A DNA stretch of 64,000 bases, from the sequence record NZ_CP083859.1; one strand, given 5' to 3'. Within the stretch, counting starts at the first letter, position 1. Every line of letters begins with the position of its first letter. The position numbers were made by a program, and so were the translations under genes. This document shows, piece after piece, positions 1-18,733 of the stretch. Below the pieces are notes generated by a model. The model saw only the letters and a program-made list of their open reading frames with translations. It was not told the origin of the DNA and ran no database searches. The stretch is from a plasmid.

Positions 1-1014
1 GTGAATGACAATCAGATTTCTGTTCACTGGTCAGATCTACCGAAAGATGAGCTAACCCGTTTCTGCCAGGATGTCGATGCCGGCACTCAGGGTAATTTCC
101 TCATTGCACCGGTCAAAAAATTGACCCGCCGCAAACGCGGTGAGCATTCCACAAAAGCCAAATGTGAGAACCCGGCCTGGTATCGCCCGGAGCATTATAA
201 AAAGCTCTCCGGACAGCTCGGTCATGCCTACAATCGCCTGGTGAAAAAAGACAAAGAAACCGGGCAGGTCAGCCTGCGCATGCATGTTTCTCGTCACCCT
301 CTCTATGTCGCCGGCCGCCGTAAGGCGGGACGTAAATATGGCTTCCGTCCGGAACGTCAGCGCCTGCTCGATGCGCTCTGGCCAGTGCTCATCAGCTTCT
401 GTGATGCCGGCAAGCATACCGTCGGCATGTGTATCTCCCGTCTTGCAAAAGAACTCAGTGCAAAGGACGCAAAAGGCAATGTCATTCCTGAAACGGAGGT
501 GACGGTGTCACGCCTTTCACGGCTTATTGAGGAACAGGTACGGTTTGGCGTTCTGGGCCTCGCAGAAGAACGCGCCTGGGATCGTGAATCCCGCACCTGG
601 TTGCCAACGTATGTCTATATAACCCCCGTGGGATTCCAGATGCTGGGCGTCGATATGGACAAGCTGTTTAAAGAGCAGGAGAAGAAGCTCCGTCAGAGCG
701 CCGAGCGTGAGCAGCTGATCCGGGAAGGAGTGATGAGCGAACATGATGATGTTCAGGCCCACTCTGCGCGGAAATGCTGGTCTGGCCGTAAGCGTCAGGA
801 GGCACTCGTTTACCGCCGCAAAAAAGGCGCGGAGCGTAAACGTGCCAACAATCTGATTAAGCTGCCGGCAGATGAACGACTCCATGCAATGTCTGAATGG
901 ATTTATCGCACCCTGCCGCCTGATGAAGCGTACTGGTGCACATCTGAGCGCCTGAAGGCGCTGGCCATCCAGCATCTTTACCAGCTGGATCTGGCGCTTT
1001 CTCCACCGGACTAG
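1..1014 (+). CDS. repA: Plasmid replication initiator RepA, IncFII-family-like (5' end outside window)
   Basis: ORF runs from the window edge. The central region aligns in pattern with R1/R100 RepA1 (RRRAIDALLQGLCFHYDP...TLAIECGL vs RQRLLDALWPVLISFCDAG...ISRLAKELS). A terminator and a DnaA-box origin region follow, as in IncFII replicons. Confidence 0.6.
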   Translation: MNDNQISVHWSDLPKDELTRFCQDVDAGTQGNFLIAPVKKLTRRKRGEHSTKAKCENPAWYRPEHYKKLSGQLGHAYNRLVKKDKETGQVSLRMHVSRHPLYVAGRRKAGRKYGFRPERQRLLDALWPVLISFCDAGKHTVGMCISRLAKELSAKDAKGNVIPETEVTVSRLSRLIEEQVRFGVLGLAEERAWDRESRTWLPTYVYITPVGFQMLGVDMDKLFKEQEKKLRQSAEREQLIREGVMSEHDDVQAHSARKCWSGRKRQEALVYRRKKGAERKRANNLIKLPADERLHAMSEWIYRTLPPDEAYWCTSERLKALAIQHLYQLDLALSPPD

Positions 1015-1046
1015 CCACAGACGACACAACAGTCTTCCTGTTTAAA

Positions 1047-1067
1047 GGCCCCTCACCGGGGCTTTTC
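1047..1067 (+). terminator. Putative rho-independent terminator after repA
   Basis: GCCCC-tcacc-GGGGC stem followed by TTTT, 30 bp after the repA stop. Confidence 0.4.
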
Positions 1068-1318
1068 GTGCTGGATTTTTTCGGCCACTCTGCTCATTTT
1101 TCAACCTTCACTCCGTTCTCATTCCGGTCACCATGACGTACTGCGTGTCGTTATGGCCCGCAGTGGCCACTGTCTCGTTTTTTTACACAGAAATCCGCAA
1201 ACGAATAAGTGAAGTAACCCGGAAACGAATAAAAGACATTCCGCAAAACAGTCTTACTTCACCGTTTTTATCTCTCTGTTCATTTCATTCCAGAGTAGAT
1301 CTTTGTTTGCAGTCACTC

Positions 1319-1327
1319 TGTGGATAA
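1319..1327 (+). promoter_or_regulatory. DnaA box (TGTGGATAA) in AT-rich putative oriR region (about 1100-1330)
   Basis: Perfect 9-mer DnaA box at the edge of an AT-rich stretch about 300 bp downstream of repA. Confidence 0.45.
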
Positions 1328-1883
1328 CGAAAAATGCCTTCGCATGCAGCGGCCTCACGGCCGCGCGCTCAGAAGGAAATAAAAAGTACCTCCCGTCGCA
1401 AGCGCCGGGCACCGTTCTCGCCAGAACCGGGCGCCGCATACATACCTGACCCCTGCTAAACCGACGCCGCCCCGGCCCGCGGGCCGGAACACCATCGCTT
1501 TAAGAGGGATGTTGTAACTAGAAGTAAGAGCTGCTGCAGTTAGCGTCGCGGCAAGCCCGCTGTACACGCTCGTAAGCGCCTCACGGCGCTAACGCGGAGA
1601 TACAGCCCGTCAGCGGCCAGAGGCCTTGACGGACTCACTCCGACCGCGCACATTAGCAATCAGAAAGCTTTAAGCGGGTATGGCTTTGCAGGGAAAGGGA
1701 TGGGATTGGCAGAACCTATCAATCCGTAACGGCTGATGCCGGTTACGACGCCCCTCACCAGAATCACCCGGTTCAGCTCCGGCTGGCGTCTCCATGCCGC
1801 TTCGCGGCATACATTTACCCTTTAAAGCAGGGTTGCCTAAATCCGGGAGCGCGATTAGCTTTAACGGGTGATTTTCAATCAGG

Positions 1884-2021
1884 ATGAGAAACATGGATAT
1901 AATTCTTCCGGGAAACAAAAGCCAGGCACGAGTCTGGGCAGAAACCATGATTAATCTGGAGGCCCGCAAACTCGTCGATACCGCTAATATTGTTGGCGCC
2001 CGACATCTGGGGATGGATTGA
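1884..2021 (+). CDS. Small upstream ORF (about 45 aa) translationally coupled to the next gene
   Basis: AGGATGAG RBS, ATG at 1884 or 1893. Its stop TGA (2019-2021) overlaps the TTG start (2018) of the downstream ORF. Confidence 0.25.
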   Translation: MRNMDIILPGNKSQARVWAETMINLEARKLVDTANIVGARHLGMD

Positions 2022-2698
2022 CGCGTCTCAAATTCATCGATGAAATTAAATCTGTCATTAATGGCGAATTTGAGCGTGCCCGGCGGGCAAAGTCTGACGA
2101 AGAGTGCATGACCTGCCTGCGTAACCTGCAGGGCGAAAACACCAGTCTGCTTGAGCAGAGCCGTCAGATCCAGACCGGTTATGCGAAACTATATGCCCAG
2201 ATCAAATACGTCAGGGATGAAGACCGGATGGTCGGTTATGTCATCTCAGGAATTAAAGTGGTGCTGGCAGGTATGCAGGGCGCATTTGGCTTCGTGCTGA
2301 CTTCCTCAATGACCCCCGTTGGCGTTCTTGCCGGGGCTATTCTGATTGTCGACTCGGCCAACACGATAACCCGTGAGGTTGGTCGTCAGTTCCTGAATGA
2401 ACCTGACACGCAGGGTATTTTTGGTGATGGTGCCATGAACATCGCTAAATTCATGGGATTTGAACGATCAACAGGATTGGGGATATACAACGGGATCGCG
2501 CTTGCAGGAAATATCTACAGTGTCTATGGATTAATGGCCAGACCTGGAACATGGCGTCTGTTTAACTATATCAGCACCGATTTTTACCGAAAAATCGACA
2601 CCATGTCCCGGGGCAAACTGACAATGAAAATTGTGGGATGGGGGGTAAAGGCTAAGGTTGTTTTCGATCTGATCACTTCTGATGACGCTGGGAAATGA
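2018..2698 (+). CDS. Hypothetical protein with glycine-rich hydrophobic segments (DUF4225-like), TTG start
   Basis: 226-aa ORF with Gly/Ala-rich predicted membrane helices (GIKVVLAGMQGAFGFVL..., GIALAGNIYSVYGL). No ATG start is available in frame, so TTG is assumed. Confidence 0.45.
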   Translation: MTRLKFIDEIKSVINGEFERARRAKSDEECMTCLRNLQGENTSLLEQSRQIQTGYAKLYAQIKYVRDEDRMVGYVISGIKVVLAGMQGAFGFVLTSSMTPVGVLAGAILIVDSANTITREVGRQFLNEPDTQGIFGDGAMNIAKFMGFERSTGLGIYNGIALAGNIYSVYGLMARPGTWRLFNYISTDFYRKIDTMSRGKLTMKIVGWGVKAKVVFDLITSDDAGK

Positions 2699-2999
2699 GA
2701 TTCCGGCGGTAATGCCATGATTTATAGGCCAGCTTCAAAGGCATGGTAATCGTAAACAGAGTGCCAAGAACAAGAATAGCCACGCCAAAGGAAATGGCAT
2801 GCATCCTCGAGCCCGCCAAAAGTGTGACCACAAAAATCAGTAACATGACTGACAGCACCCATATCAGGGCCTTAAAACGGTTTGCCAGATCGTTCAGGAG
2901 GGTATCCATCTCCGTACCCGTTTTAGCTGAACTGGCCTGCAGCCGGACAATGTCCTCTTCACTGAAGCCGTGGTTCGTCAGATCACTTTCATGGTTCAT
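2673..2999 (-). CDS. Small membrane protein (2 predicted TM helices)
   Basis: 108-aa ORF with a strong GGAGAG RBS. Its 3' end overlaps the 3' end of the convergent 2018-2698 gene by 26 bp. Confidence 0.5.
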   Translation of the reverse strand: MNHESDLTNHGFSEEDIVRLQASSAKTGTEMDTLLNDLANRFKALIWVLSVMLLIFVVTLLAGSRMHAISFGVAILVLGTLFTITMPLKLAYKSWHYRRNLISQRHQK

Positions 3000-3089
3000 G
3001 CTTCTCTCCTTTTCCCTGCGGGAAGTTTAACATGCCCTGCGCTAATAACCAGTTAAGCCCGACCGATAACCTGTCAGGTGGTTACGGGC

Positions 3090-3189
3090 TATCAGTTCTT
3101 TCTCACTGATAGCCATCACGTCATCCTAAGTAAGCCAAAAGCAGACTGTACCAGACCAATAATCCCCAGGTGGCCGGCGTAAGCATAAT
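3090..3189. repeat. 100-bp duplicate of the traX 3' end (copy 1, matches 8901-9000)
   Basis: Near-identical 100 bp (1 mismatch) shared with the 3' end of the intact traX at 8901-9000. It includes a CTATCAG-N10-CTGATAG palindrome. Confidence 0.85.
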
Positions 3190-3227
3190 GGGGTCAGTTT
3201 GGATATAGAGAATTATTGTACGGTAAG
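3190..3227 (+). repeat. Degenerate Tn3-family 38-bp terminal IR (GGGGTCAGTTTGGATATAGAGAATTATTGTACGGTAAG)
   Basis: Begins GGGGTC and ends TACGnTAAG. It is about 68% identical to the IR at 8863-8900/22459-22496. Its first 16 bp are 14/16 identical to the IR at 11880. Confidence 0.45.
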
Positions 3228-3510
3228 CCTGTTTTTTGAAAAGGCTCACCTATAGCGATAAGGTGTACTCCTGCGCTATACGCCATTTTCAGGGGATTTG
3301 ACCTTAATCGAATAACCATCCATGGCAAGTCCCTTCCATTCGTTAAGGTTGCTTTTCGTATTTCGGAGGCATGAAATTGGAAGGAGGCATGAGTGAAAAA
3401 CTGATATTTTTCATCGTCCACTACTTTGTCAATTTTTTATGTAATGACATTTAAGTTAAAAATACTGACTCTAGTTTCAGACACAAAAAATACCAGTTGA
3501 AAGCAGGGGG

Positions 3511-4800
3511 CTATGATTCAGCCTGTACAGCAGTATTTATCTCTTCAACAACCGCCATCATGGCCGAGGCATTCATACTGATTTGCGAGATTATTTCTGC
3601 GGTCTTTTCTGCCGTATTGACAGATTTTATGATCGCATCATTACTCTCACGTATTTTCACTACGGACTTTTTACAGAGTTCGCTGTTCTGCTCAGTAATA
3701 CCCGAAATTTGTTTCGTAGCGGAATCTATCCTGTCCGCCAGAAGACGTACTTCAGCAGCCACAACAGAAAATCCCCGACCATGAATTCCAGCCCGAGCAG
3801 CTTCGATTGTGGCATTCAGTGAAAGCATTTTTGTCTGGACGGCGATATCATGGATAGTATTTGATATTTCAGTTATTTCTGCGGAGCGCTGTGATAATTG
3901 CTGAATATACCCATTCAGCACCGTGGTAGTGGTAATTGCGTCTTCAAGAGCAACAGACGTTTCTGCAATTGCTGCACTGACATGTGATGTCTGCTCCGCA
4001 GTTAAAGATGACACATCATATGCCTTATGCGCCGCCTGTGCTTCAAACTCATTTTTTAACTTCTGTTTTGTAATATCCTGAGCATATTTGACAACCTTCA
4101 TTACCTTTCCGTTAAAATCAAAAACAGGACAGTAACTGGCCTGTAGCCACAAATCCGCACCGTGTTTCGTGATGCGCCGGTATACACCGGTCAGCGTTTC
4201 ACCACAACTTAATCTTTCCCAAAAAAGTGCATACTCAGCAGATGTACTGAAAGTTTTATCGCAAAATAATGAATGGTGTTTACCCTGGATATCTGCCAGG
4301 CTATATCCTGCAGCATTTAAAAAATTATCATTAGCTGTGATAATGTGTCCCGATGGATAAAATGTGATCATTCCCATAGAAAGACTTGCAGCTTTTAATA
4401 ACGCATCCTTTTCAAGAGCTATGACAATACGCTCTGTTATATCACTGGCTATTTTTATGATGCTTTTTACTTTACCCCCCCTGCTTTTAATAGGGATGTA
4501 GTTAGCTTCAAGCCATATTATCGAGCCATCTTTTTTATAACGCATGAACTTGTCAGAAAACGAGTACCCGGCAGAAAGTTTTAGCCAAAAAGACTCATAA
4601 TCTGTACTTTTTACATAGTCTTCATCACAAAATATGCGATGGTGCTGTCCAATCAATTCGTCTCTTTCATAACCAACAACATCAAGAAATTTTTTATTTA
4701 CGTCATAAATGACGCCATCTGTTGAAAACTCTATAAAAGCTGCGTGATCCTGCAGCGCCTTCAGAACAGGTTCTGAAGAATGAATGAATTTTTTAAGCAT
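3511..4800 (-). CDS. Soluble PAS-PAS methyl-accepting chemotaxis protein (Aer-like transducer, no TM segment)
   Basis: Two PAS-like modules followed by an MCP signalling core ([30 protein letters not shown]). The C-terminal part looks short for an MCP. Confidence 0.8.
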
Positions 4801-5205
4801 TTTTTAGTCCTGGATAGTTTTTTATCTAAAAAGTCAGGCTCATAAAAAGAAACAGAGTTGGCGACAAGCATATGCCATACAATATTCATGGAATCAACAG
4901 GATAGTGTCTATCAGGAGAAAAGGCAACAGATAAACATGGACATTAAAAAAAATTGTATAACTATATTGAAGTAGGAGTTTAAGTTCAATAGCATAAGAT
5001 TAATGTGTTGATTTATTCTCCGACGGTTGGTTTTGTCGATACCACAATGTTTTCTATAACATTTGGTTATAAAGAGCGCTTTTTTTTCAAGAGAAAGGAA
5101 TTTACATATACCGAAAGTTTATTAAAACTGTTCCTGCTAACTGAAAGCACCACTTTATTTAAAGAAATACATAAATATATCACTTTAGTGAGATAAACGA
5201 TTTAA

Positions 5206-6169
5206 ATGATTAATTCCAACCAGAGAAACGAAGAAAAAAGACAGCTTTCTTTATATAACATCGAGCTTTTGAATACCGGCTCAGATGAACGTTTCGATCG
5301 ACTGACGAGAATAGCGGTAAGGTTGTTTGATGTTCCAATAGCGCTGGTTACACTAATTGATGAAGAACGGCAGTACTTCAAATCCTTATGTGGTGTGGAA
5401 CTGCAACCAATAAATAAAATGGTGTCATTCTGCAATTGGATTTTAAAAACCGGACAGCCTTTGGTCATTGAAGACACATTGATGAATCCAAACTTTTCAA
5501 AAAATCCTCTGGTTACCGGCTATCCTTTTATACGTTTTTATGCAGGATATCCGGTGCGTTTACCCGGCGGAGATATAGCCGGTGCAATCTGCGTGCTTGA
5601 CAGTTCGCCAAAAATCTTTTCCCCAGAGCAAATGTCTTTGCTCATGGACCTCGCAGCAATTGTAGAAGACGAGTTTGAATTATTACAAATAGCCATTAAA
5701 GATTCTTTAACTGAACAATTTAACAGCCGCTCCTATACCCTCTTTCTTGAAAAAACCTTCCGCAAAGCACGATTAAAAAAGAGCGTGTTTAGTGTCATCG
5801 TTATTGATCTCGATGAGTTCAAATTTATCAATGACACCTTTGGACACCATGAAGGCAATAGAGTGCTGAAGGCTTTCGCCCGCATCCTTGAAGAGGTTAC
5901 AGCAGGCAATCACATGATTGCCAGACTCGGTGGTGATGAATTCAGTATTTTACTTACTGACTGACTGCTCAGAGGCTGATGCTGTATCAGTTGTAGAAAA
6001 AATCAAGCTAGCTGTGCATAACTTAAATCAATCCGCTACAATATCCGGTATATTATCATTTTCAGCAGGTACTGCAGAATTTAATGCAGAGAAACATAAG
6101 GTACCTTCCGACATAATGAAAGAGGCAGACATGAAAATGTATGCCATAAAAAATGGAGAGATATCCTGA
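5206..6169 (+). pseudogene. GAF-GGDEF diguanylate cyclase, frameshifted near 5950
   Basis: ORF 5206-5964 ends ...RLGGDEFSILLTD*. The overlapping ORF 5918-6169 continues the GGDEF domain (LLTDCSEADAVSVVEKI...). The intact paralogue at 46690-47664 reads through. Confidence 0.65.
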
Positions 6170-6739
6170 TCCGGTATGTTATACATTATCAGACACTCGC
6201 TCACCACAGTCTCCAACCTCAGTAATGTGGCCCGACAGGACTGTGCAGGTGAAAAAGAGAGAACCGATACGACGCACTTATGACAAAGTCCGGAGCAGAA
6301 ACTCTATATTTGATTGTTTTGAAAACTTAGAATAGACATGGACTACAGAGCAGTCTTGCAACCTCTTGAGTTGCGACAGTGATATCTAATACAGATTCCT
6401 GCCAGTTCTCAATCAGTCTGAGAAGATAATGCATTAGACGAAACCGTGTTTCTCAGCGCCGAGCATATTGCTGAGTTGAGGTGATGCTGGCGTGGCCCAT
6501 CGCGCCTTTAATGCTGATCAATTCCTCGCAATAAGCAAACATCGCGGTCGCAAAGTTTATCCCTGGATCGTGCAGCGCCCTAGTCAGACATGCGGTCGAT
6601 CGTCAGGGGGCAACCTTCTGATGCGCCACTTCTCTCGCCCCGGACCTTGTCAATCCACATTGCTAGCCGCATCTGATGCAGATACTAGTGTCATCTGCTT
6701 CAAATGCACGAAACAGCTGGCCGTACCCCTCCGGCGGGT

Positions 6740-6890
6740 GCGCCGATAACCAAAACGCCTTCGTTCGAGCGCAAGCTTTGTGATACGCCCTGATAAATGT
6801 GCTTCAGCAGCTGTACGCTGATGCACATTTATCAGGGCATATTATCTAGCTGACTCTTGAACGCAGACGTTTTGGTTATCGGCGCATCTG
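6740..6890. repeat. Imperfect inverted duplication (about 75-bp arms) around a GATAAATGTGC...GCACATTTATC palindrome
   Basis: Arms share GCGCCGATAACCAAAACG and GCCCTGATAAATGTGC in inverted orientation. The right arm encodes IWLMLRQEG, an IS3-family orfB N-terminus. Confidence 0.55.
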
Positions 6891-7277
6891 GCTGATGCTG
6901 CGTCAGGAGGGGCTGGCGTCTGAACGGTTTCCGCTTCTGCGTCTGGATGCCCCGAGCCTGACCTGGCCGATGGAGCTTGGAGAAAGAAATACTGAAAAGT
7001 TTGTCCGTCTGTTCCTGTTGCCGGGAGTAGGTCATTGTGGCGGTGGTGAAGGGTTAAATCAGATAGATTTGCTTTCTCCGCTGATGGAATGGACCGAACA
7101 ACATAAGGCACCAGATGTTCTGATTTCGGGCAAGTTGGCCTCTGATACTCATGAAAAAGTGGCAATGCCACCAATGCAGCCGCAGGGAACAATGTCTGAA
7201 GGCAAAATGAAAGCAGAATCTCTTTTTCATGGTCTACAGCTGACCAGTTCTCCGGTTGCTGCAGCTATGCCATTACT

Positions 7278-7583
7278 CTACGTGCTGCTCACCGCTGTTG
7301 TGCAGGGCTTCAGGTTCAGCTCTCTGGCGAACTTCCGCGTTTCATGCGCGGTATACGCTGAACCGTTATCCTTCAGCCACTGTATCGGAGTATCCGGCAA
7401 CCTGTCGCCGAAACGCTTTTCCACCGACCTCAGCATCACATCCTGCACCCTCGAACTGTCGTAGCCTCCGGTGCTTGCCACCCAGTCTATGGCCTCTCTG
7501 CCACAGCAGTCCCGCGCGAACGTGACCCGCAGTTTTTCACCGTTGTCACAGCCGAACTCGAAGCGGTCCGAACTCCACCACAT
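7278..7583 (-). pseudogene. IS3-family (IS2-like) transposase OrfB fragment
   Basis: [27 protein letters not shown]...[14 protein letters not shown]...[23 protein letters not shown] matches the IS2 InsD integrase core. It is truncated at both ends. Confidence 0.7.
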
Positions 7584-7669
7584 ATTGCTTTCTGCTACCG
7601 CGTATTAGACGTCAACTAGTTTTGCCGACTGGCGCCAACTACTCTGGCCGCATCCATTGATAGGTGGTT

Positions 7670-8240
7670 TTAAGCCACGCTGGTTACTGCCTTCGCTGTC
7701 TTTTTCCGGTAACTTTCTCCTTTTAGCTCGAAAATATATCCGTGATGGATCAGCCGGTCGGCTGCTGCCACAGCCATCGTTTCATCCACGAAGATGCTGC
7801 CCCACGTGCTGAACGGATGGTTGCTAGTGATGACCAGACTGCCGCGCTCATCGCGATGCGCGATCAGTTCGAACAACACTCCCGTTTCCGCGTTGTCGCG
7901 TTTGACATACCCGAGGTCGTCTATCACTATCACCCGGTAGCTATCCAGTTTCAGCAGAAGCTCGTTCAGTTTTAGTTGTGTCCGCGCTTTACGCAGCTCC
8001 TGCAGCAGCTCTCCGGCACTGTAGAACCGGGCCCGGTAGCCCAGCCTTACAACACCATCCACGATCGCCTCCGCCAGAAGGCTTTTTCCCAGGCCGCTGG
8101 CACCGAACAACAGGACGTTTTCTACGGCATCAACCCAGTCTGTCGTTTCGCAGAGCTGCCAGAACTGAGCGTTATTCAGTTCCGGCACCTGACTGAAGTC
8201 ATACTCACCCAGCGTTTTCGCCACCGGCAACCGGGCTTCC
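7670..8240 (-). pseudogene. istB: IS21-family IstB helper ATPase, N-terminally truncated (no istA)
   Basis: AKTLGEYDF...LLFGASGLGKSLLAEA...VIVIDDLGY...LVITSNHPFSTWG...DRLIHHG...LKGESYR. The first 30 or so residues of the ORF come from read-through into the neighbouring gene. Confidence 0.7.
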
Positions 8241-8271
8241 TGAGAGTCTGCTCTGTGCCAAATGCTGACGC

Positions 8272-8700
8272 TCAGGAATTGAGTTTCAGGTACTTTAAAA
8301 GCGAGGCTAGAGACTCGACAGGTCCAGCGTGACAACTAGGTGAGCGGGTTTCATCCCAGGGCATTGCATCATCAGTGCAGAAGTCTCCTGCACATTCCAT
8401 TTCAAGACGTTCGTCAATTAAACCAACAGGAACCCAGACATAAGGTACATCTCGCAGACTGTTAGGCACAGTTGAGCCACATACATTGCAAAAATCTGTA
8501 CGGTACCCCGTTGGCTTAGACCATGAAGCAATGCAGTTTTCCCCTTTAATCCAGCGAAACTCACTGTCTTTGACTAGTGTGGCGAGATTGTAACCCACGC
8601 CGCTCTGCTTTCTGCAAAGCGAGCAATGACAACGATAAAACACTGCTGGTTTATGAGTAAGTTCAAATTCAATTGTTCCACACAAACAAGATCCATTCAT
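8272..8700 (-). CDS. GFA-family (glutathione-dependent formaldehyde-activating / CENP-V-like) Cys-rich protein
   Basis: 142 aa with a CLCG...CHCSLC...CNVCG cysteine pattern. Confidence 0.65.
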   Translation of the reverse strand: MNGSCLCGTIEFELTHKPAVFYRCHCSLCRKQSGVGYNLATLVKDSEFRWIKGENCIASWSKPTGYRTDFCNVCGSTVPNSLRDVPYVWVPVGLIDERLEMECAGDFCTDDAMPWDETRSPSCHAGPVESLASLLKYLKLNS

Positions 8701-8862
8701 TTCAAAACCATTCCTGCAAGGCCTAAGAGATTTTATGAAACATTACCATCTTTTTTGTACTGAATAGGAGCGCTCTTTTTGGCAACTCAAAATCAGCTAT
8801 CAGTCGGTCTGAATATCCGCTCTTCGCTCAAAGCTGTCTGTCATGACTCTTTAAAAAACAGG

Positions 8863-8900
8863 CTTAGCGTAGGATGTTTTCCGTTTTCCAAGCAGACCCC
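8863..8900 (-). repeat. Tn3-family 38-bp terminal IR (GGGGTCTGCTTGGAAAACGGAAAACATCCTACGCTAAG) with an adjacent tnpA 3' remnant
   Basis: 35/38 identical to the IR at the tnpA end (22459-22496). It is preceded by AAAAAACAGGCTTAG, the last tnpA codons (KKQA*). Confidence 0.75.
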
Positions 8901-9000
8901 TATCAGCTCTTTCTCACTGATAGCCATCACGTCATCCTAAGTCAGCCAAAAGCAGACTGTACCAGACCAATAATCCCCAGGTGGCCGGCGTAAGCATAAT
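8901..9000. repeat. 100-bp traX 3' segment (copy 2, part of the intact gene)
   Basis: Identical to 3090-3189 apart from 1 mismatch. Confidence 0.85.
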
Positions 9001-9712
9001 AAAAGAAATTACGCGGCATGAAACGCTTGCGGCCCTCCGGACAGATTTTTCTGCAGAAGGAAACCACTGCCAGGGGGAATGCCAGAGTAGGCAGCGTGGC
9101 CAGTAATAATGTTTCTGCGGGCATATCCAGGAGATGCGATAACCCGTTTAAACAAATCAGTGACAGCACGGCAGTGATGGCCGCCAGACGCTGCACTTCG
9201 GGTTTTTCGTTGCCAGAAACGGTTGCCATACTGATGGCCAGCGTTATTCCTGCCAGCCCGTAGCTTGCCTGCTGCAATGGCCAAATCATGATGGCCAGGA
9301 GCAGATATCCCACAAACATTCCTTTCAGGCCGTGCTGGTACTGCAGGGCAATCAGCTGCGTGACGCCGGCAAACACGAACAGAATGTTCAGGGCCCACCA
9401 GGGCTGGTGATGCCAGAAGGCCAGGCTGAACACCGGCTGCGTGATGACTGCCCAGATCCACAGACGATTGGCTCTCTTCTGCAGTCGTTCCGGGGTACGC
9501 TGTACGTTCATCGCCCATATAAGCGTGAACAGGGGGAAGGCCATCCGGCCAAGCGCATACATCACCGGCAATGCTGGCGACAGAAACACCGTATTGATGT
9601 GGTCGATAATCATGGCCAGAAGTGCGAGAAGTTTGACCAAATCTAGAGCTGCGGGACTGAGCTGGCTGGCGTTCCGGATAGTGGGAAGAACGTCGGGTAC
9701 TGAATGATTCAT
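8942..9712 (-). CDS. traX: TraX-family protein (F-pilin acetylase-like), orphan
   Basis: 256-aa polytopic membrane protein with the TraX-type N-terminus (LDLVKLLALLAMIIDH). No other tra genes are nearby. Confidence 0.75.
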   Translation of the reverse strand: MNHSVPDVLPTIRNASQLSPAALDLVKLLALLAMIIDHINTVFLSPALPVMYALGRMAFPLFTLIWAMNVQRTPERLQKRANRLWIWAVITQPVFSLAFWHHQPWWALNILFVFAGVTQLIALQYQHGLKGMFVGYLLLAIMIWPLQQASYGLAGITLAISMATVSGNEKPEVQRLAAITAVLSLICLNGLSHLLDMPAETLLLATLPTLAFPLAVVSFCRKICPEGRKRFMPRNFFYYAYAGHLGIIGLVQSAFG

Positions 9713-10056
9713 GCTGTAGATTCCCCTGGCGACACGCGGTTAACAGCCAACCCTGAACATAATGCCAGAATGCCCTGCCGGTTTGCGTTGTGACCCTGAT
9801 CTTTAGTTTCTCCAGAATCTTGCGCACTGCAAATTCTGATTTATCACGCAGCACGCGCATTGCGCCTGCCACATCCTTATTCTGAATACAAATACTTAAA
9901 TTATGAAAATCGTTCACACCGCCCCCTTTCTTACACTCTTATTATCGGCTGCATGAATATTATATTTAGCGGAGTAGGAAAATTCCTAATAAAAATTCAT
10001 ATTAGCGCCCAAAATCTGGGCCAATTTATCGACCCTTTTATATATGTGGCGATCGC

Positions 10057-10557
10057 TCATGAATTATCTGTATTATTTGCTGAAATTTTTTCCCTGACCA
10101 GAGCGAAATCTTCACGAATAGATTTTGCGGCAGGCTTCCACCCTTTAGCCCATTCCTCGTTCATACGGCCTTCACTGACAATTTTGAGGGTGATGGCATA
10201 AGGGGTGCGCTGCAGTTTCTTCGACAGCCAGAGTATATGATCGTCGATTCTGTCATCCGGAATATCAGCAATAATCGAATGAATAAGGTCCAGGTCCTCA
10301 GGTGCCCACGGTTTTCCTGATCGCGGAAATACTTCATCCGGAAGGCGTGGTTTTTTTTCCTTTTCTTCTTTTACCTGCTTTTTAGCTTCTTTTTCCGCAG
10401 TGATGAGGCGCTGCCGCTCCGTTAACCCTCCCAGAATTGCAACCGTCCTGACCATATTTTCACGCTGCTCACGTGTAATATTTACTTCACCGCATATAAT
10501 GGCATTTAAAGTATCTACAAGGTTTTCCAGCTTGCTTTCTGTCAATTTTAACGTCAT
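10057..10557 (-). CDS. Hypothetical protein, co-oriented 12 bp downstream of the nuclease gene
   Basis: 166-aa ORF with a Lys/Glu-rich central segment. No motif recognised. Confidence 0.45.
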   Translation of the reverse strand: MTLKLTESKLENLVDTLNAIICGEVNITREQRENMVRTVAILGGLTERQRLITAEKEAKKQVKEEKEKKPRLPDEVFPRSGKPWAPEDLDLIHSIIADIPDDRIDDHILWLSKKLQRTPYAITLKIVSEGRMNEEWAKGWKPAAKSIREDFALVREKISANNTDNS

Positions 10558-10569
10558 TCAGAAATCTCC

Positions 10570-11064
10570 TTAATCATTATTCTTTTTTAGCCCATCCTGA
10601 TGCAGACTACGCCAGCGCCAGGGCTCTGTCTGACCCGGTTCTGACCAGAGTCCGACTGACTGACGGCGGGCTTCGGCCTCCAGAACAGCGTAGTCTGGCC
10701 GGACGGGTTTTCCGTGGTACCGGTATGCCCAGGCCAGGCCTTTGCGTACCTGTGCGGCATTTACATCCGTCATACCAAGCCATATGGTACCCAGCAGGCG
10801 TCCATAGCGATCCATTTCACTTCCCGTGACGGTTACGGGCCACTGAGCCACCATCGATGAGAGTTCCTGACGTGAACGCTGACCATAGGGCTGGCTCTTT
10901 TCCGGCGCATCGATGCCAGCCAGGCGAACGCGCGTCAGTCGGTTTCCTGGATCAAGTATCTCAACGGTATCCCCGTCCAGCACGCGCACAATCCGGCCGC
11001 TGATATCTGCACTGGCCGAAAACGCCACAACGAACAGGACCAGTGAGCAGAACTTCCGTTTCAT
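10570..11064 (-). CDS. nuc: Secreted thermonuclease (staphylococcal-nuclease-like Nuc)
   Basis: Signal peptide MKRKFCSLVLFVVAFSASA, then VRVLDGDTVEI...RVRLAGIDAPE...GRLLG, typical SNase-fold motifs. Confidence 0.8.
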   Translation of the reverse strand: MKRKFCSLVLFVVAFSASADISGRIVRVLDGDTVEILDPGNRLTRVRLAGIDAPEKSQPYGQRSRQELSSMVAQWPVTVTGSEMDRYGRLLGTIWLGMTDVNAAQVRKGLAWAYRYHGKPVRPDYAVLEAEARRQSVGLWSEPGQTEPWRWRSLHQDGLKKNND

Positions 11065-11123
11065 TATTTATTATCCCCGGTTGCATACCCTGCGGATATT
11101 AAGCTCGTAAATTTCAACTCGGC

Positions 11124-11483
11124 TTATCCTCCAACGAGGCTTTTTAAAGGTATGCCAAACATTGAATGTAATTTCCTGATCATGGGCAGCGTCAGATTAC
11201 GTTTGCGGTTAAGCACTTCATAGACCCGGTTAGATTTTCCAATTGCCGGCTCAAGATCTTTTACCGTCAGCCCCTGCTGTTCCATCCTGAATTTAATAGC
11301 TTCAATCGGATCCGGGGCTTCGATAGGAAAGTGTTTGTTTTCGTATTCATTAATCAGCACACACATGATTTCGAAAAAGTCTCCCTCCGGGGTATCAGCA
11401 GGAGGCTCGTCATCAAACATAGGCTCTACAGCGCGTAACGCATCTTCATAGTCCTGTTCAGTTTTAATTGGTTTAATCTGCAT
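11124..11483 (-). CDS. higA: HigA antitoxin (XRE-family HTH)
   Basis: 119 aa, downstream of the toxin with a 5-bp gap. HTH segment KSNRVYEVLNRKR. Confidence 0.75.
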   Translation of the reverse strand: MQIKPIKTEQDYEDALRAVEPMFDDEPPADTPEGDFFEIMCVLINEYENKHFPIEAPDPIEAIKFRMEQQGLTVKDLEPAIGKSNRVYEVLNRKRNLTLPMIRKLHSMFGIPLKSLVGG

Positions 11484-11488
11484 AGGGT

Positions 11489-11791
11489 TTACTCCAGGCT
11501 GACAGTTTCAGCATCTATTTTGTCATATTCTTTATGCGTACCAATGAATTTGATAAACATCCATCCTCGCTGGTATGCAATCGCAACAATTAACCGGTAG
11601 TCATTTCCCTTAATATTAAAAACCACTCGCCTGTTTTTAAGAATACTGGCACTGCGGTATTGTTCTTTGATTTCTGCCGGAGTTTTCCATTCAGCTTTAC
11701 TGGCCTCATCTACCCAGGCTTTTAGCGGCTGCTCTGCATCGGGATTCGCCGTCCAGAAATCCCTCAGTGTCTTGATAGCGATTATCTTCAT
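11489..11791 (-). CDS. higB: HigB toxin (RelE/ParE superfamily mRNA interferase)
   Basis: 100 aa, upstream of higA (toxin-first order typical of higBA). ...FNIKGNDYRLIVAIAYQRGWMFIKFIGTHKEYDKI. Confidence 0.75.
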   Translation of the reverse strand: MKIIAIKTLRDFWTANPDAEQPLKAWVDEASKAEWKTPAEIKEQYRSASILKNRRVVFNIKGNDYRLIVAIAYQRGWMFIKFIGTHKEYDKIDAETVSLE

Positions 11792-11801
11792 GTCATGATG
11801 A

Positions 11802-11858
11802 TAGTCCCATTTTAGGACTACTTCAAGTTTTTTGTCCCGTTATGGGACTTAAATTTAT
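11802..11858. promoter_or_regulatory. higBA promoter with two palindromic operators
   Basis: TAGTCC-N6-GGACTA (11802-11820) and GTCCC-gttat-GGGAC (11844-11858), 10-70 bp upstream of the higB start. Confidence 0.5.
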
Positions 11859-12396
11859 CTGAAGATACAGGGGGCAGTTTGGAGACCGGAGTTTTTTTAC
11901 GTTAAACGTATTATTTAACCGATCGCGAGGCGTAACGGAATGATTTTGCGTCAGAGGCTATCGCTTTTAATTTAACGCCCTTGCGATATCGCAGTTGCGG
12001 TCCAGTTCTGCTGGCTGCACGGGATATGACCTGGTATATTGAGACAACCGCCAGGCGTTAATACAGGGATACAACGAAGGAAATCAAGGCTCAACAGTTT
12101 GTCACATCAACGGGACGACAGGTGCTTACCGACAACGGCCAGCAAGGTATGGGTTGCGTAGCAGGTATCGGCTGAAAACTGAAAAGTGTCAGGGACGCGT
12201 AGCTGAAGCAATTTTTGCGAACTGCGCGGAACTGGATAACGACCAGTTTATCGAGACCATCGATTGGATTAGGCTCTATAAGCGCTGAATGCCACCATCA
12301 GGTATGTAACAGTTAAGTGATATACGAAGTGTAGGGATATTTTATGATTGGAGAATTAAAATCTGAGAGACAAACCATTGTGTACGGGAGGTCACA

Positions 12397-12648
12397 ATGA
12401 AAAACTGGACCAGAAACTTTATTGATGACATGAAGCATATCTGGCGGGAATTCAGGCGGGATATTGCTGAAACTAATGCTAAAAAAAACCTCAATGATGA
12501 TGATGTGGCTGGCGTTAGCCATTCCGTTGACTGGAATAATGTACCTGATTTAGATCCGCGAAAGGCGGTTAACAACCTCGATAACTTCTACTCACGGCAA
12601 TTAAGGGGAACGGAATATCCAGGTACGCGATATCAGCACAGGAACTAA
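12397..12648 (+). CDS. Hypothetical small protein
   Basis: 83-aa ORF with a GGGAGG RBS 8 bp upstream. Confidence 0.4.
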   Translation: MKNWTRNFIDDMKHIWREFRRDIAETNAKKNLNDDDVAGVSHSVDWNNVPDLDPRKAVNNLDNFYSRQLRGTEYPGTRYQHRN

Positions 12649-12876
12649 ATGTTTTGCGCATGCGCAAAATGCAGCTGAGTCTGCATTTTTTTGACTAAAA
12701 GCAATGTTCGAATCTTTTTGTTACCTCGTTTGCTGATGCCCAGCAATGTTGTCCGGCCACCAGTGCTGTACTGACGGGTACCAGCCCTGTTGCCGCAGTA
12801 AAATCACGACTACTACCGTACTGCTTCCCGTCACCAACCTCAGTTGAAATGGTACTGGCCGTTAGCGGGGGTTGAA

Positions 12877-13121
12877 GGCCAACCGGACGAGAACGCACGC
12901 GAAGTACATTTTTTGAGCGGTCAGACGAGTAAAGAAAACGAGGATTTTGTTTACTCTTTTCGTTGATGCCAGTAGCCATGCGGTTTCAGGTACTTTCAGT
13001 GTTAATAAACCCGGTAATCAAATCAACGTAAACCTGACGAACAACGCCACGACTTCATAGACCTAAAATCATGCAGTTAGGTTCTTAGCGTACATTTCCG
13101 CTCCATTGGGCTTCAAACCCC
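12877..13121 (+). repeat. Direct repeat copy 1 (about 250 bp) beginning with a Tn1000-like IR
   Basis: GGGGTTGAAGGCCAACCGGACGAGAACGCACGCGAAG resembles the gamma-delta IR (GGGGTTTGAGGGCCAATGGAACGAAAACGTACGTTAAG). About 97% identical to copy 2. Confidence 0.8.
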
Positions 13122-13342
13122 GACTATGACAAACTCATGCTTCCAGTTCGTCAGACACGGCAAAGCGCCGCTAAAAGGCAACAGCCTATGCGGTAGCGTG
13201 TTCATGCAGGGGAATAGGTCGAGAGGTCTTGAAGTATGCGCCTAACTGCGGCTACACTGAGATCACTGATTTGGTGACGTTGTTCCCCTAGAACACGCTA
13301 CCTGGCTAATCAGTCCTGAGAAAACTGGTTAGCCCGTCAAAG

Positions 13343-13372
13343 CCCGCGCCTGAGAACGCGGGTTTTTTCGTT
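13343..13372 (+). terminator. Rho-independent terminator (AAAGCCCGCGCC-tgagaa-CGCGGGTTTTTTCG)
   Basis: GC-rich hairpin followed by a T-run. Confidence 0.6.
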
Positions 13373-13449
13373 TAGGGAAAGAAGATACGCTGCACATCCC
13401 CGCCACGTCAATCAACCATCACGATCAGGCTATGATGCTAATGTCGAGC

Positions 13450-13623
13450 TTAACGCCAAACCAGAAGAATGCCAGCCACTAAAAAGACGAAAAAAGCGCA
13501 ATATAGACTGATGGCAGGCTTAGTTTCATGCTCCCCAGCAACAACAGTGACTAGCGAGACTAAGCTGACAAACAACAGCAAAAAGCCAATTGCAGTGTTA
13601 TGGGCATATACAAAATCCATCAT
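13450..13623 (-). CDS. Small hydrophobic protein (57 aa, 2 predicted TM helices) between the two repeat copies
   Basis: AAGGAA RBS. Translation MMDFVYAHNTAIGFLLLFVSLVSLVTVVAGEHETKPAISLYCAFFVFLVAGILLVWR. Not in the ORF track because it is under 60 aa. Confidence 0.35.
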   Translation of the reverse strand: MMDFVYAHNTAIGFLLLFVSLVSLVTVVAGEHETKPAISLYCAFFVFLVAGILLVWR

Positions 13624-13757
13624 AATATTCCTTTTTCAAATAAGAGCTGTGTTTGAGGTTAAAAGCCAAAGCAGGTTAGCAACAAAATCCGTAATCGGCA
13701 CGCCATAAAATCAGGTAAGCGTTAAGTGAGCGCCGTATTGACGGTTATTTATCGGTG

Positions 13758-14011
13758 GGGGTTGAAGGCCAACCGGACGAGAACGTACGCGAAGTACATT
13801 TTTTGAGCGGTCAGACGAGTAAAGAAAACGAGGATTTTGTTTACTCTTTTCGTTGATGCCAGTAGCCATGCGGTTTCAGGTACTTTCAGTGTTAATAAAC
13901 CCGGTAATCAAATCAACGTAAACCTGACGAACAACGCCACGACTTTATAGACCTAAAATCATGCAGTTAGGTTCTTAGCGTACATTTCCGCTCCATTGGG
14001 CTTCAAACCCC
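13758..14011 (+). repeat. Direct repeat copy 2 (Tn1000-like IR + about 215 bp)
   Basis: Same orientation as copy 1, about 890 bp to its right. Confidence 0.8.
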
Positions 14012-14140
14012 TAGATCCGAAAAATACCAGAACCGGAACCGGGTAACACAGCAGCCCAAAATATTCCTCTCCTGTGTTACCGACATTCCCCTCAGGCGTG
14101 GACATAATGACCGTGACAGCAAAACTGATGAGGAAAAGAA

Positions 14141-14374
14141 ATGAAATTCATCCCTGCCCGTACTGCCGCCGATGTGCTGGAGATAATGAAATCATACCGT
14201 GACGATCTGCGTGAAAAGACATTGTATGAACTATCCTGGTCTGTGCTGGAAAGGCTCATTTCACGTGATAGGGGTCCGCTTGGAAAACGGAAAATATCCT
14301 ACGCTAAGACTAATTTTATGACAGACGGCTTTGTTCGAAAAGCAGACTCAAAAATTATCGGTGGCTCTATATAA
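14141..14374 (+). CDS. Hypothetical small protein
   Basis: 77-aa ORF with a GAGGAAAAG RBS. Confidence 0.4.
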   Translation: MKFIPARTAADVLEIMKSYRDDLREKTLYELSWSVLERLISRDRGPLGKRKISYAKTNFMTDGFVRKADSKIIGGSI

Positions 14375-14435
14375 AGGATGACTACATAAAAAAGACACAG
14401 AAGTACCCTTCTGAATTCATGCCGAGGGGAACATT

Positions 14436-15344
14436 TTACTGGTTTATTTCTTCACGCAGACGTCTGATATCACGTAGCGGCGACTCGCCAAACTCTCTGC
14501 TGTACTCGCGGCTAAACTGGGAAGCACTCTCATAGCCTACTTTTATCGCCGCGCTCACCGCGTCAAGATGGCTGTTCAGCATTTGCTGTCGTGCCTCCTG
14601 AAGTCTGAGCTTCTTGATAAACTGTAGCGGACTCATCCCTGTCACTGACCGGAAATGGTGACGAAATGATGACGTGCTCATCGACGAGCGGGAAGCCAGC
14701 TCATCTATGCTGACTGGCTGAGTAAAGTGTTGTTTAAGCCAGGCAACTGCCCCGGAAATTTGTTGCCCAGGCGAACCCGGTGATGCGATATGGCGAAGCG
14801 CACTCCCATAGGGGCCTGTCAGCAGCCGAATGATGATCTCCTGCTGTATGAGCGGGGCAAGATGCTGAATTAAAGGTGGTTCGTCATTCAGTGACAGCAG
14901 TCTTCTCAACGTATCAGCAAGTCCCGCGTCAAGCTCATTAACGGCCAGCGGATCAAAAACCGATGATTTAGCCGCTGGTCGAAAAGGGATCATTGCCGCC
15001 GTCTGCATCACAGCAGCGGGCTCAATAGTGACCATCATCCCCAGGAACGGTGCGGATGCTGTCGCCGTCGCAACATGTGACACGACCGGAAGCTCAAGTG
15101 TGGTGAGCAGTGTTTGCCCTGCGCGGTAGCCAGTTACTTTTCCTCCCAGCACCACTTCTTTACTGCCCTGAATAACCACACCTAAGCCAATGCCATAGAT
15201 ACAATGCACGGGAGTGGTCGGTGCATTTCGTCGGTGCACCGATAACGACGGAACTACAGTTGTGAAATCACCATCGTATTGTGCAATCTCGTTAATTTTC
15301 TCAGCAAGCATTTTAAGGCTTTGTTCTAAGGAAAAGTCCTGCAT
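14436..15344 (-). CDS. AraC-family transcriptional regulator
   Basis: C-terminal AraC HTH (SSFRHHFRSVTGMSPLQFIKKLRLQEARQQM). Divergent from the oxidoreductase operon. Confidence 0.85.
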   Translation of the reverse strand: MQDFSLEQSLKMLAEKINEIAQYDGDFTTVVPSLSVHRRNAPTTPVHCIYGIGLGVVIQGSKEVVLGGKVTGYRAGQTLLTTLELPVVSHVATATASAPFLGMMVTIEPAAVMQTAAMIPFRPAAKSSVFDPLAVNELDAGLADTLRRLLSLNDEPPLIQHLAPLIQQEIIIRLLTGPYGSALRHIASPGSPGQQISGAVAWLKQHFTQPVSIDELASRSSMSTSSFRHHFRSVTGMSPLQFIKKLRLQEARQQMLNSHLDAVSAAIKVGYESASQFSREYSREFGESPLRDIRRLREEINQ

Positions 15345-15519
15345 CTCTCAGTCCTGATAACTCTCATGATTCAATAGTAACGTAAAAATTAAAATATCAT
15401 TTATGGAAGCCAATAACCCAATTCATGAAAAATAAATCATTTCAGGCAATGATTGTGGTGAAGTGAGCAAGCCATCTTAGCGCTTTGTGGTCAATAATGC
15501 TTCTATCATGTTCCTGCTT

Positions 15520-16626
15520 ATGGAGTGCTTTGTGACAGGTTTATTTTCTTCATTTTCGCTGAAAGATATTACGCTACGTAATCGGATAGCAGTTTCTCCC
15601 ATGTGTCAGTACCAGGCTGTCGATGGCTTTATCAATGACTGGCACAGTACCCATTATTCCATGCTCGCACGTGGGGGGGCTGGTCTCGTTGTCGTTGAAG
15701 CCACTGCCGTAGCACCTGAGGGCCGAATTACACCCGGTGATGTCGGATTATGGAGTGATGAACACATCTCAGGGCTGTCGTCCATTGCCGCAGCAATTAA
15801 GGCAGCCGGGGCTGTCGCAGGGATTCAGCTCGCCCATGCGGGCCGAAAAGCCGGCTGTACGCCACCATGGCAGGGTGGCGCACCTCTGGATCGAGATGAT
15901 ACACAGGCGTGGGAGCCCGTCGGGCCTTCCGCCGTCCCCTTCGTACCCGGGAATGACTATATTCCCCGTGAAATGACCAAAGATAACATCCGACAAACGC
16001 AGCAGGACTTTGCCCGAGCGGCAGAGCGTGCCTGCCAGGCTGGTTTCCAGTGGCTGGAACTGCATTTTGCCCATGGTTTCCTGGCACAAAGTTTTCTTTC
16101 CTCACAGTCAAATACCCGTTCGGATGAATATGGCGGTTCTCTTGAAGGGCGTGCCCGCTTCTTACTGGAGACAGTAGCTGAAGTCCGCAAGTTCTGGCCT
16201 GATAATTTCCCCTTAACGGTACGCCTCGGCGTGGTTGAATTTGATGACTGTCCTGAACATTCTTTCAGCGAATCACTCAAAGTAATCGGCTGGCTGAAGG
16301 ATGCCGGAGTTGATTTTGTTGATGTGGGTCTTTCTCTGGCAACGCCAGGTGAGAACATCCCGTGGGCGGCAAACTTTATGATTCCATGGGCTGCACGTGT
16401 TCGCCGGGAGAAAAACATTCCTGTCGGGACAAGCTGGATGATTACTCAGGCTAAAGAAGCGAATGAATTCATACAGGACGGTAAAGTAGATGTGATCTTT
16501 TTCGCCCGCACATTGCTGGCTAATCCGCACTGGCCATATCGCGCGGCGCGGGAGCTTGAAACCTCCGACCCGCACGCTGTATTACCCACACCCTATGCAT
16601 ACTGGTTACAAAACTGGTCCGAATGA
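15520..16626 (+). CDS. Old Yellow Enzyme family NADH:flavin oxidoreductase (YqjM/NemA-like ene-reductase)
   Basis: N-terminal LKDITLRNRIAVSPMCQY is the OYE FMN-binding signature; HAAHGFL-like HFAHGFLAQSFLS is also present. The start is uncertain: ATG 15487/15508/15520 or GTG 15532, the last with a GGAG RBS. Confidence 0.8.
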   Translation: MECFVTGLFSSFSLKDITLRNRIAVSPMCQYQAVDGFINDWHSTHYSMLARGGAGLVVVEATAVAPEGRITPGDVGLWSDEHISGLSSIAAAIKAAGAVAGIQLAHAGRKAGCTPPWQGGAPLDRDDTQAWEPVGPSAVPFVPGNDYIPREMTKDNIRQTQQDFARAAERACQAGFQWLELHFAHGFLAQSFLSSQSNTRSDEYGGSLEGRARFLLETVAEVRKFWPDNFPLTVRLGVVEFDDCPEHSFSESLKVIGWLKDAGVDFVDVGLSLATPGENIPWAANFMIPWAARVRREKNIPVGTSWMITQAKEANEFIQDGKVDVIFFARTLLANPHWPYRAARELETSDPHAVLPTPYAYWLQNWSE

Positions 16627-16705
16627 CCATAACAGGTTGCGTCGTCCCGGCCACGTAACCTGCCCTCATCAGGGGGATCCGTCCTGGTAGTGAAACCTTT
16701 ATTAA

Positions 16706-17890
<1,185 letters not shown>

Positions 17891-17931
17891 TTCCCGCCTG
17901 AGGTCAGACTTAAACTATTGGAAGAAATTTT

Positions 17932-18660
17932 ATGAATATTGAGAAGAAAAAAAGAGTCGCTGTTGTTACCGGATCATCCTCTGGTATAGGTGAAGCTATC
18001 GCACGTGAACTGGCAGGAAACGGAATTACGGTTGTGCTTTTGGCCCGTCGATTCGAACGTATTGATGTTTTGGCCAGCGAGCTGGGGCACGGAGCAATTG
18101 CGATTAAAGCTGACGTGACAGAGCGTGAATCGATTGTGGCTGCGGCTAATCAGGTTGAACAAGCGTTAGGTGGTGTGGATATCCTGATAAATAATGCCGG
18201 TGTAATGTTAACGGGCCCTTTTGATTCAAGCCAGCGTGATGAACACCGCCAGATGATAGAAACAAACCTCCTAGGAGCAATGACAGTAACAGAGGTATTT
18301 CTCCCACAATTGCGTCGAAACAAGGGCGATCTCGTCAATATCTCTTCTGTAGCAGGTCGGGTCGCACCTTCAGGGTTTGCAGCGTATGCGGCAACAAAAT
18401 GGGGGATAAATGGATGGTCAGAAGCACTTCGGGTGGAACTACAGCCTGACATTCGCGTCATGGTGATTGAGCCCGGCGCTATTGCAACAGAATTAGCCGA
18501 TCATATTACTCACGAGGAAAGCCAGTCTGTGGCAAAATCTGCACTGGACTGGGCTATCCCGCCTTCCGATATCGCTGAGGTCATAGCATTTGCTGTCAAC
18601 CTGCCGAAGCGCACGAGTATCAACGAGATATTGATCAGACCTACTGTTCAAATGATGTAA
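17932..18660 (+). CDS. Short-chain dehydrogenase/reductase (SDR)
   Basis: VAVVTGSSSGIGEAIA Rossmann motif, NNAG, S...YAATK catalytic motif. Confidence 0.85.
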   Translation: MNIEKKKRVAVVTGSSSGIGEAIARELAGNGITVVLLARRFERIDVLASELGHGAIAIKADVTERESIVAAANQVEQALGGVDILINNAGVMLTGPFDSSQRDEHRQMIETNLLGAMTVTEVFLPQLRRNKGDLVNISSVAGRVAPSGFAAYAATKWGINGWSEALRVELQPDIRVMVIEPGAIATELADHITHEESQSVAKSALDWAIPPSDIAEVIAFAVNLPKRTSINEILIRPTVQMM

Positions 18661-18733
18661 GAAAAAATATGCGGATCGCATAAAACCTGTTCCTTATGCG
18701 GTCCCTGCCTTCACCGTCGATGGAGGTTTATAT

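Follow-up and report, generated by a model that had tools for sequence, protein, structure and literature searches.

The present analysis concerns a stretch of plasmid DNA of 64,000 nucleotides (sequence record NZ_CP083859.1; its whole length is referred to below as the window) and, within it, the segment of 5,711 bp at positions 3190-8900, which lies between two direct copies of a 100-bp sequence and which an earlier note, made from the letters alone, had described as a Tn3-derived pseudo-transposon. Most probably the segment did not travel as a single transposon but is a scar left by recombination on an Enterobacter IncFII plasmid; it is an accretion of separately acquired pieces, shows no sign of movement as a unit and is devoid of a transposition function of its own. 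In our opinion it is rather probable that this accretion region is bracketed by the outward tips of two unrelated Tn3-family relics, and that the duplication around it derives from the joining of two backbone copies. The components (the miniature element MITESen1, a solo Tn3-family inverted repeat (IR) and chromosomal captures), as well as the processes by which they came together, are all of known kinds.

The two copies of the repeat, at 3090-3189 and 8901-9000, are identical at 98 of 100 positions, the mismatches being 3096T/8907C and 3132A/8943C; near-perfect copies had indeed been noticed there, and what needs correction is their description as the last 100 bp of traX, the repeat being composed of the last 59 bp of the traX reading frame, its stop codon among them, and of 41 bp downstream of the gene. 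The window starts with the IncFII repA gene (1-1014), followed by a DUF4225 gene and by a small hypothetical gene, and copy 1 (3090-3189), an orphan traX 3' fragment, is contiguous with this left backbone; copy 2 (8901-9000) is joined to traX, which is full length (8942-9712, minus strand), and represents the authentic 3' end of the gene with its downstream region. A search of public plasmids for the empty site, as the earlier note had advised, found it in many of them (e.g., pCF10-C): there, window positions 1-3189 run straight into 8900-11104, and the 100 bp are present once in each plasmid. When mapped on the empty site, the left tip of the segment falls within the traX 3' end (...GCATAAT/AAAAG) and the right tip 41 bp past the traX stop codon (GGGC/TATCAG), the distance between the two sites on the backbone being 100 bp. 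Copy 2 is the empty-site allele, without differences (100% identity to pCF10-C), copy 1 departs from it at two positions, and the alleles T3096 and A3132 of copy 1 are found in every relative carrying the MITESen1 junction. The immediate flanks of 3190-8900 are unlike (left ATAAT, right TATCA), and no 5-bp direct target duplication is present. A single-copy empty site, tips that fall at different points of the backbone and non-identical copies of the sequence between these points are the marks of a recombinant or cointegrate junction; because plasmids with the empty site have the 100 bp once only, the duplication is best taken as the result of joining two copies of the backbone at element ends 100 bp apart, and not as a target-site duplication. 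Its topology calls for two copies of the backbone, one in which an element ends at ATAAT and the other in which traX is intact and an element ends at TATCA.

The same topology would also fit a different origin, in which a single hybrid element entered traX in one event and left an unusually long target duplication of 100 bp, since the left flank runs into copy 1 and copy 2 runs into the right flank. Such an origin is, however, scarcely credible: we know of no transposase that makes a 100-bp stagger, the two copies differ at two positions and the two ends, as described below, are not cognate. The target duplications of Tn3-family elements are of 5 bp (table of Gomi and Yano 2026, PMC13367494), and the earlier judgement that 100 bp is too long for one of them, hence that no simple insertion took place, holds good.

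The segment is bounded by two 38-mers of the GGGG...TAAG type with their tips outward, GGGGTCAGTTTGGATATAGAGAATTATTGTACGGTAAG at 3190-3227 and its inverted counterpart at 8863-8900. This had been seen correctly from the sequence, and both 38-mers are genuine Tn3-family ends, with the length, the form (GGGG...ACGNTAAG type) and the outward orientation of the terminal IRs of this family. Tblastn searches carried out with TnpA and TnpR of the resident transposon of the window (see below) found no transposase or resolvase remnant in 3190-8900, as the earlier note had held for the transposase, and no tnpA, tnpR or res homology is present within the segment. Of the pseudo-transposon, Tn3-family ends with no transposase between them have therefore stood; what has not is their being "two real, imperfect ends of one transposon family". 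Indeed, the left and right 38-mers share 26 of 38 positions (74% over 54 nt), and each of them is better matched elsewhere, the left one by the left terminal IR (IRL) of MITESen1 (38/38) and the right one by the IRs of the resident transposon (36/38), so that the two do not form a cognate pair.

MITESen1 is a 256-bp Tn3-derived inverted-repeat miniature element (TIME) listed in ISfinder; Table S2 of Gomi and Yano 2026 (PMC13367494) contains its sequence. The left half of MITESen1 (element positions 1-127) is found at 3190-3317 on the plus strand of the window, with 91% identity over 128 nt; the IRL (3190-3227) abuts ATAAT with its tip at 3190, while homology to the element ends at element position 127, where the half is fused to foreign DNA, and the complete 256 bp with both IRs are thus not to be found here. 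The left 38-mer, like the 128-bp stretch at whose start it lies, is part of a repeat occurring in thousands of enterobacterial plasmids, which is complete, as a 256-bp element with terminal IRs, in pK516_NDM1; the right terminal IR of MITESen1 agrees with its IRL at 32 of 38 positions. The right half of the element (positions 129-256) survives as an inverted relic at 11870-11996 (minus strand, 81% identity, tip at 11870). It is here that a second left-type IR had been reported at 11880, whereas it starts at 11870, and that a recurrence of the left-type/right-type pairing had been seen between 11880 and 22496; this pairing is wrong, since 22496 pairs with 14271 (38/38) and 11870-11996 is the MITESen1 right-half relic. 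The relic belongs to the shared backbone, being present in loci L013 and L005 and, together with the empty site of the resident transposon, in CP032294.1. The window is therefore like MITESen1 in its IRL and in the inverted match to positions 129-256, and unlike it in having half an element at each place and no 5-bp duplication.

Some further observations concern the distribution of this element. MITESen1-like sequence is present in more than 4,500 PLSDB plasmids, about 1,400 of which carry at least 80% of the element; this is far above the published frequency of 2.3% of genomes, a figure obtained with thresholds of 95% for identity and coverage. MITESen1-type IRs also end autonomous transposons in many Enterobacterales genomes, and an autonomous relative with such IRs is carried by p4M8F, its transposase (NZ_MN256758.1, 316547-319534) being 74% identical to the resident one. 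Both halves in the window end at nearly the same element position, 127 (window 3317) and 129 (window 11996), and in the E. coli plasmid L007 positions 1-126 of MITESen1 are followed by IS2. A recombination hot spot at MITESen1 127/128 was considered and rejected, the breakpoints at 118 loci of species-representative genomes being scattered, with no excess at 127.

The right end of the segment is a 70-bp solo terminal fragment (8831-8900, minus strand) of a Tn3-family transposon of the resident type; its IR (8863-8900), whose tip at 8900 abuts TATCA, matches the IRs at 14271 and 22496 at 36 of 38 positions each, with subterminal homology to both ends. The string AAAAAACAGGCTTAG, which had been taken for the last codons of a tnpA, does match the end of the resident tnpA but sits within the 70-bp fragment; no tnpA is truncated there, the fragment abutting a chromosomal GFA fragment, and the tnpA-like codons are a resemblance within the extended IR region, not a truncated gene. 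A tnpA remnant beside 8863-8900 was likewise looked for and is absent, the apparent homology past the 70 bp being in part that of the chromosomal GFA fragment.

The insertion sequences (IS) IS4321 and IS5075 reportedly insert into the 38-bp IRs of Tn21-type transposons. In a comparable manner, IS5075 is found in the resident-type IRs of relatives of the window, unlike the window's own IRs, which are free of it. Plasmid CP187109.1 (locus L155) has the same arrangement as the window, with IS5075 in the IRs at 8879 and ~14290; in this plasmid and in those of E. ludwigii CRE2104-31 (L004, CP123378.1, and L005, CP123379.1) the IS occupies the same position in the IRs 8863-8900, 14271-14308 and 22459-22496, and an IS that targets IRs thus treats 8863-8900 as a genuine one. 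The CRE2104-31 plasmids carry reciprocal hybrid IRs split by IS5075: in one of them the inner half of 8863-8900 is followed by IS5075, by the outer half of 22459-22496 and by AAGAA, in the other the inner half of 22459-22496 is followed by IS5075, by the outer half of 8863-8900 and by TATCA. It follows from these hybrids that the CRE2104-31 plasmids go back to a plasmid of the window type in which IS5075 copies recombined homologously, whereby window 8880-22475 was excised and relocated.

Structures in which cargo is bounded by two copies of a TIME and is mobilised in trans have been described as TIME-COMPs (Szuplewska et al. 2014, PMC4133298; Gomi and Yano 2026, PMC13367494). The segment is like them in that transposase-less DNA lies between outward Tn3-family IR tips, with a related transposase encoded on the same plasmid; it is unlike them in that it is bounded by half a TIME and by a non-TIME solo IR of another type (26/38), with neither two copies of the same TIME nor flanking 5-bp repeats, and in that it is found at a single site. 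In the PLSDB records and assembly contexts that were read, the 3190-8900 unit occurs at one site only, which does not speak for movement; the junction between the MITESen1 half and the MCP gene next to it is present in about 10 PLSDB plasmids, at the traX site in all of them with the exception of one record truncated there by IS activity. The arrangement recurs at 99.95% identity in CP055996.1, in CP128636.1 and in a metagenome contig. An assembly artefact was considered and rejected, several independent complete assemblies having the same arrangement.

As to how the backbone copies came to be joined, the most likely route would start from two related co-resident plasmids, one with the MITESen1 junction at ATAAT in its backbone copy, the other with the solo-IR junction at TATCA and an intact traX. 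These would have recombined homologously within shared accessory DNA, for example the widespread GFA module, which is found on many other plasmids and so offers homology for recombination, and a second crossover elsewhere would have restored a monomer; the product would carry, in this order, the left backbone, the 100 bp and the MITESen1 half at one end, and GFA, the solo IR, the 100 bp and traX at the other. As an outcome, traX is intact, and travelling next to it are GFA, a PAS-MCP gene that is itself intact and a diguanylate-cyclase gene that is dead. The junctions are like those left by recombination between Tn3-family elements, by cointegrate formation and by one-ended transposition in their precise tips, in their unlike flanks, in the duplication of the backbone between the two sites and in the presence of a solo IR near a cognate transposase; the route itself is one that we infer, because neither the reciprocal product nor either of the parents was found in the databases searched.

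Several results weigh against this reading. No parent plasmid with either of the predicted partner junctions, and no reciprocal junction, was found in the databases searched: an IR followed by ATAATaaaag is absent from PLSDB, as is a complete MITESen1 with an ATAAT duplication; gggcTATCA followed by GGGG gave only one chance hit in the JGI metagenomes; neither partner junction is present in the fetched loci, and the intact IR-TATCA junction is in no PLSDB record. The alleles of copy 1 were not seen among the 50 empty-site plasmids listed, so that the two single-nucleotide differences could be later mutations in an orphan fragment rather than the signature of a second lineage. Moreover, the divergence of the backbone from pCF10-C barely differs near the junction (98.5% on the left versus ~99% on the right), and precise tip-to-target junctions with unlike flanks are also left by a transposase-made cointegrate or by an adjacent deletion.

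This last point bears on a possible, if doubtful, alternative, namely that the segment, or its right end alone, was a transposase substrate. The resident TnpA would have acted in trans on the 36/38 solo IR, either together with the MITESen1 IRL or in a one-ended fashion, and it would have done so by intermolecular replicative fusion of plasmids or by an intramolecular deletion from the tip to TATCA in an existing cointegrate; the old flank ATAAT would have been kept on the left and the new target TATCA gained on the right, the repeat resulting from sites 100 bp apart in homologous DNA. Both tips are in fact joined to the backbone to the base, with unlike flanks, as in cointegrates and adjacent deletions, and the resident transposon has the same pattern of donor flank and target flank (TGATA/AAGAA); the gene for an intact TnpA lies 10 kb away, the resident IRs and the solo IR disagree at only 2 of 38 positions, no more than two steps are needed (a cointegrate and then an adjacent deletion), and single Tn3-family IRs have been shown to undergo one-ended transposition (Avila et al. 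1988, as cited in PMC4133298). On the other hand, the left IR agrees with the resident IRs at 27 of 38 positions, the nearest transposase of the cognate type that was found, that of the p4M8F relative with MITESen1-type IRs, is not encoded in the window, the unit is known from one site only, and neither a second copy nor a reciprocal junction was found in PLSDB, in the JGI metagenomes or in the fetched loci. Furthermore, the Tn3-family transposases of the Tn21, Tn501 and Tn1721 literature usually do not cross-act on IRs so diverged, and transposition immunity is expected to disfavour targets already carrying a cognate IR, which here would be 5.4 kb away. The proposal that the half-TIME and the heterologous solo IR make up a working hybrid pseudo-transposon, or that the solo IR is active one-ended, with the resident transposase acting in trans and fusing two related IncFII plasmids, appears improbable to us; if it were true, mismatched Tn3-family ends would be mobilisable in trans, and TIME-COMP-like mobilisation would be extended to them, with a chemotaxis transducer gene carried along.

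The interior of the segment is in keeping with its description as an accretion of pieces. The gene content listed in the earlier note is reproduced by Pfam, which identifies PAS-PAS-MCP, a split GAF-GGDEF, a tannase fragment, an rve (IS3) fragment, an IstB (IS21) fragment and GFA. A chromosome-derived signalling module (3318-6578) follows the MITESen1 half and contains an intact gene for a soluble PAS-PAS-MCP protein with no other domains (3511-4800, minus strand) and a frameshifted GAF-GGDEF gene (5206-6169, plus strand, in two parts at 5206-5964 and 5918-6169). Over 3473-6578 the module is 79% identical at the nucleotide level to contigs L166-L168, where the cyclase is an intact open reading frame (ORF) of 319 aa and where the MCP gene and then a dCache-GGDEF gene are found; one of these contigs also carries ynaE, gnsB-like and integrase genes, and the setting is a chromosomal-type context. 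The GC content is 38.6% over 3318-6200 versus 52% for the backbone. That the chemotaxis transducer and the cyclase are Tn3-family cargo, as had been suggested, is not demonstrable, the module being a chromosomal one with relatives in contigs in which the cyclase is intact.

The frameshift of the GAF-GGDEF gene (ORFs of 252 aa and 77-83 aa) is common to the plasmid relatives in which both ORFs are called. The MCP protein was found in 487 index blocks of public assemblies, the contexts read being the 10 places shown from 24 contigs; in 9 of these 10 contexts MCP adjoins the same IncFII hypothetical and DUF4225 genes, and the remaining one has an IS110-family element and an ars operon in place of this flank.

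An origin of the module as true cargo has also to be weighed in connection with the two MITESen1 halves, which might be the arms of a full-length ancestor from which MITESen1 arose by internal deletion, the genes for MCP and the diguanylate cyclase having been carried next to the left arm. The stopping of the halves at the same place in the element, at 127 and 129, speaks for this possibility; nevertheless, we regard it as highly improbable, since the halves lie 8.5 kb apart, in the same direction and with unrelated flanks, and are unequally diverged from MITESen1 (91% versus 81%), since the homology of the two genes to the chromosomal contigs begins only at 3473 and has no transposon context, and since the breakpoints in 118 other loci are scattered.

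Beyond the signalling module lies a region of debris (6579-8245), which includes two inverted IS3-family fragments (6730-6808 and 6817-6895), a tannase fragment (ORF 6895-7464), the rve (IS3) fragment (7278-7583, minus strand) and the IstB/IS21 fragment (7670-8335, minus strand), the last overlapping the GFA module. The latter is a captured chromosomal fragment of 585 bp (8246-8830, minus strand) made up of GFA (8272-8700) and its upstream region; it is 99% identical to enterobacterial chromosomes of 5.2-5.5 Mb, where it is located between LysR and 2OG-oxygenase genes. Its right boundary is at 8830 in every plasmid context; what lies past this boundary varies: in the window lineage it is the 70-bp Tn3-family end, in pF81_1 it is a stretch of 13 nt similar to the inner edge of that end and, most often, it is an IS110-family element followed by a heat-resistance island (LHR).

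For annotation, the lesson of the locus is that DNA without a transposase is not necessarily a mobile unit when it lies between two outward Tn3-type IRs; comparison of each IR with the known TIMEs and with the resident transposons resolves the question. The locus is also a worked example of the rebuilding of an Enterobacter IncFII plasmid by means of TIME relics, solo IRs, chromosomal captures and IRs targeted by IS5075; the latter later serve as portable homology, as documented by the reciprocal hybrid IRs of the CRE2104-31 plasmids.

The resident Tn3-family transposon (14271-22496, plus strand), whose IRs are identical to each other, carries AraC, OYE, AKR and SDR genes as cargo, together with tnpR, encoding a serine recombinase (18734-19318, minus strand), and tnpA, encoding a transposase of 994 aa (19479-22463, plus strand). 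In pENTE01 of Enterobacter sp. 638 (NC_009425.1, 28997-37222) one continuous match covers exactly 14271-22496, with the same gene order and 92.4% identity; this element is the counterpart of the resident transposon, not of the 5.7-kb segment. When the pENTE01 copy was used as a positive control, no 5-bp duplication was found around it (TCCTT versus TAAAA). The flanks of the resident IRs are likewise unlike, TGATA versus AAGAA, with no target duplication; the TGATA empty site is visible in CP032294.1, and the AAGAA flank lies in a 5'-truncated parE, next to pcoE. The unlike flanks, together with the TGATA empty site, imply that recombination between element copies has reshaped the region more than once.

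From 22497 onward, the right IR of the resident transposon abuts the parE toxin gene, which is without roughly its first dozen codons and is followed by pcoE and by a pco/sil copper-silver cluster matching L003 and L004 to ~43.5 kb. The flanks TATCA (8901-8905) and TGATA (14266-14270) are reverse complements of each other, probably by chance: read outward from the two tips both are TATCA, and none of the single-event geometries considered (intramolecular replicative transposition in inversion or deletion mode, insertion into a circular intermediate) fits them. A crossover between the IR of a 13.6-kb circle (8901-22496) and a resident IR was also rejected, the two IR-internal single-nucleotide polymorphisms not being recombinant and 22459-22496 being identical to 14271-14308 (38/38).

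Between the MITESen1 right-half relic and the resident transposon, a 255-bp sequence is directly repeated at 12867-13121 and 13757-14011 (99% identity). It is a TIME-like miniature element, for which no name was found, with IRs of the gamma-delta/IS101 type (GGGGGTTGAAGGCCAACCGG... and ...CCATTGGGCTTCAAACCCC) and with an interior unlike that of IS101; its direct copies, 890 bp apart, make up a TIME-COMP-like structure of 1,145 bp without 5-bp repeats. Directly next to the left tip of the first of these copies lies a fragment (12702-12867) with 84% identity to an internal portion of IS5075.

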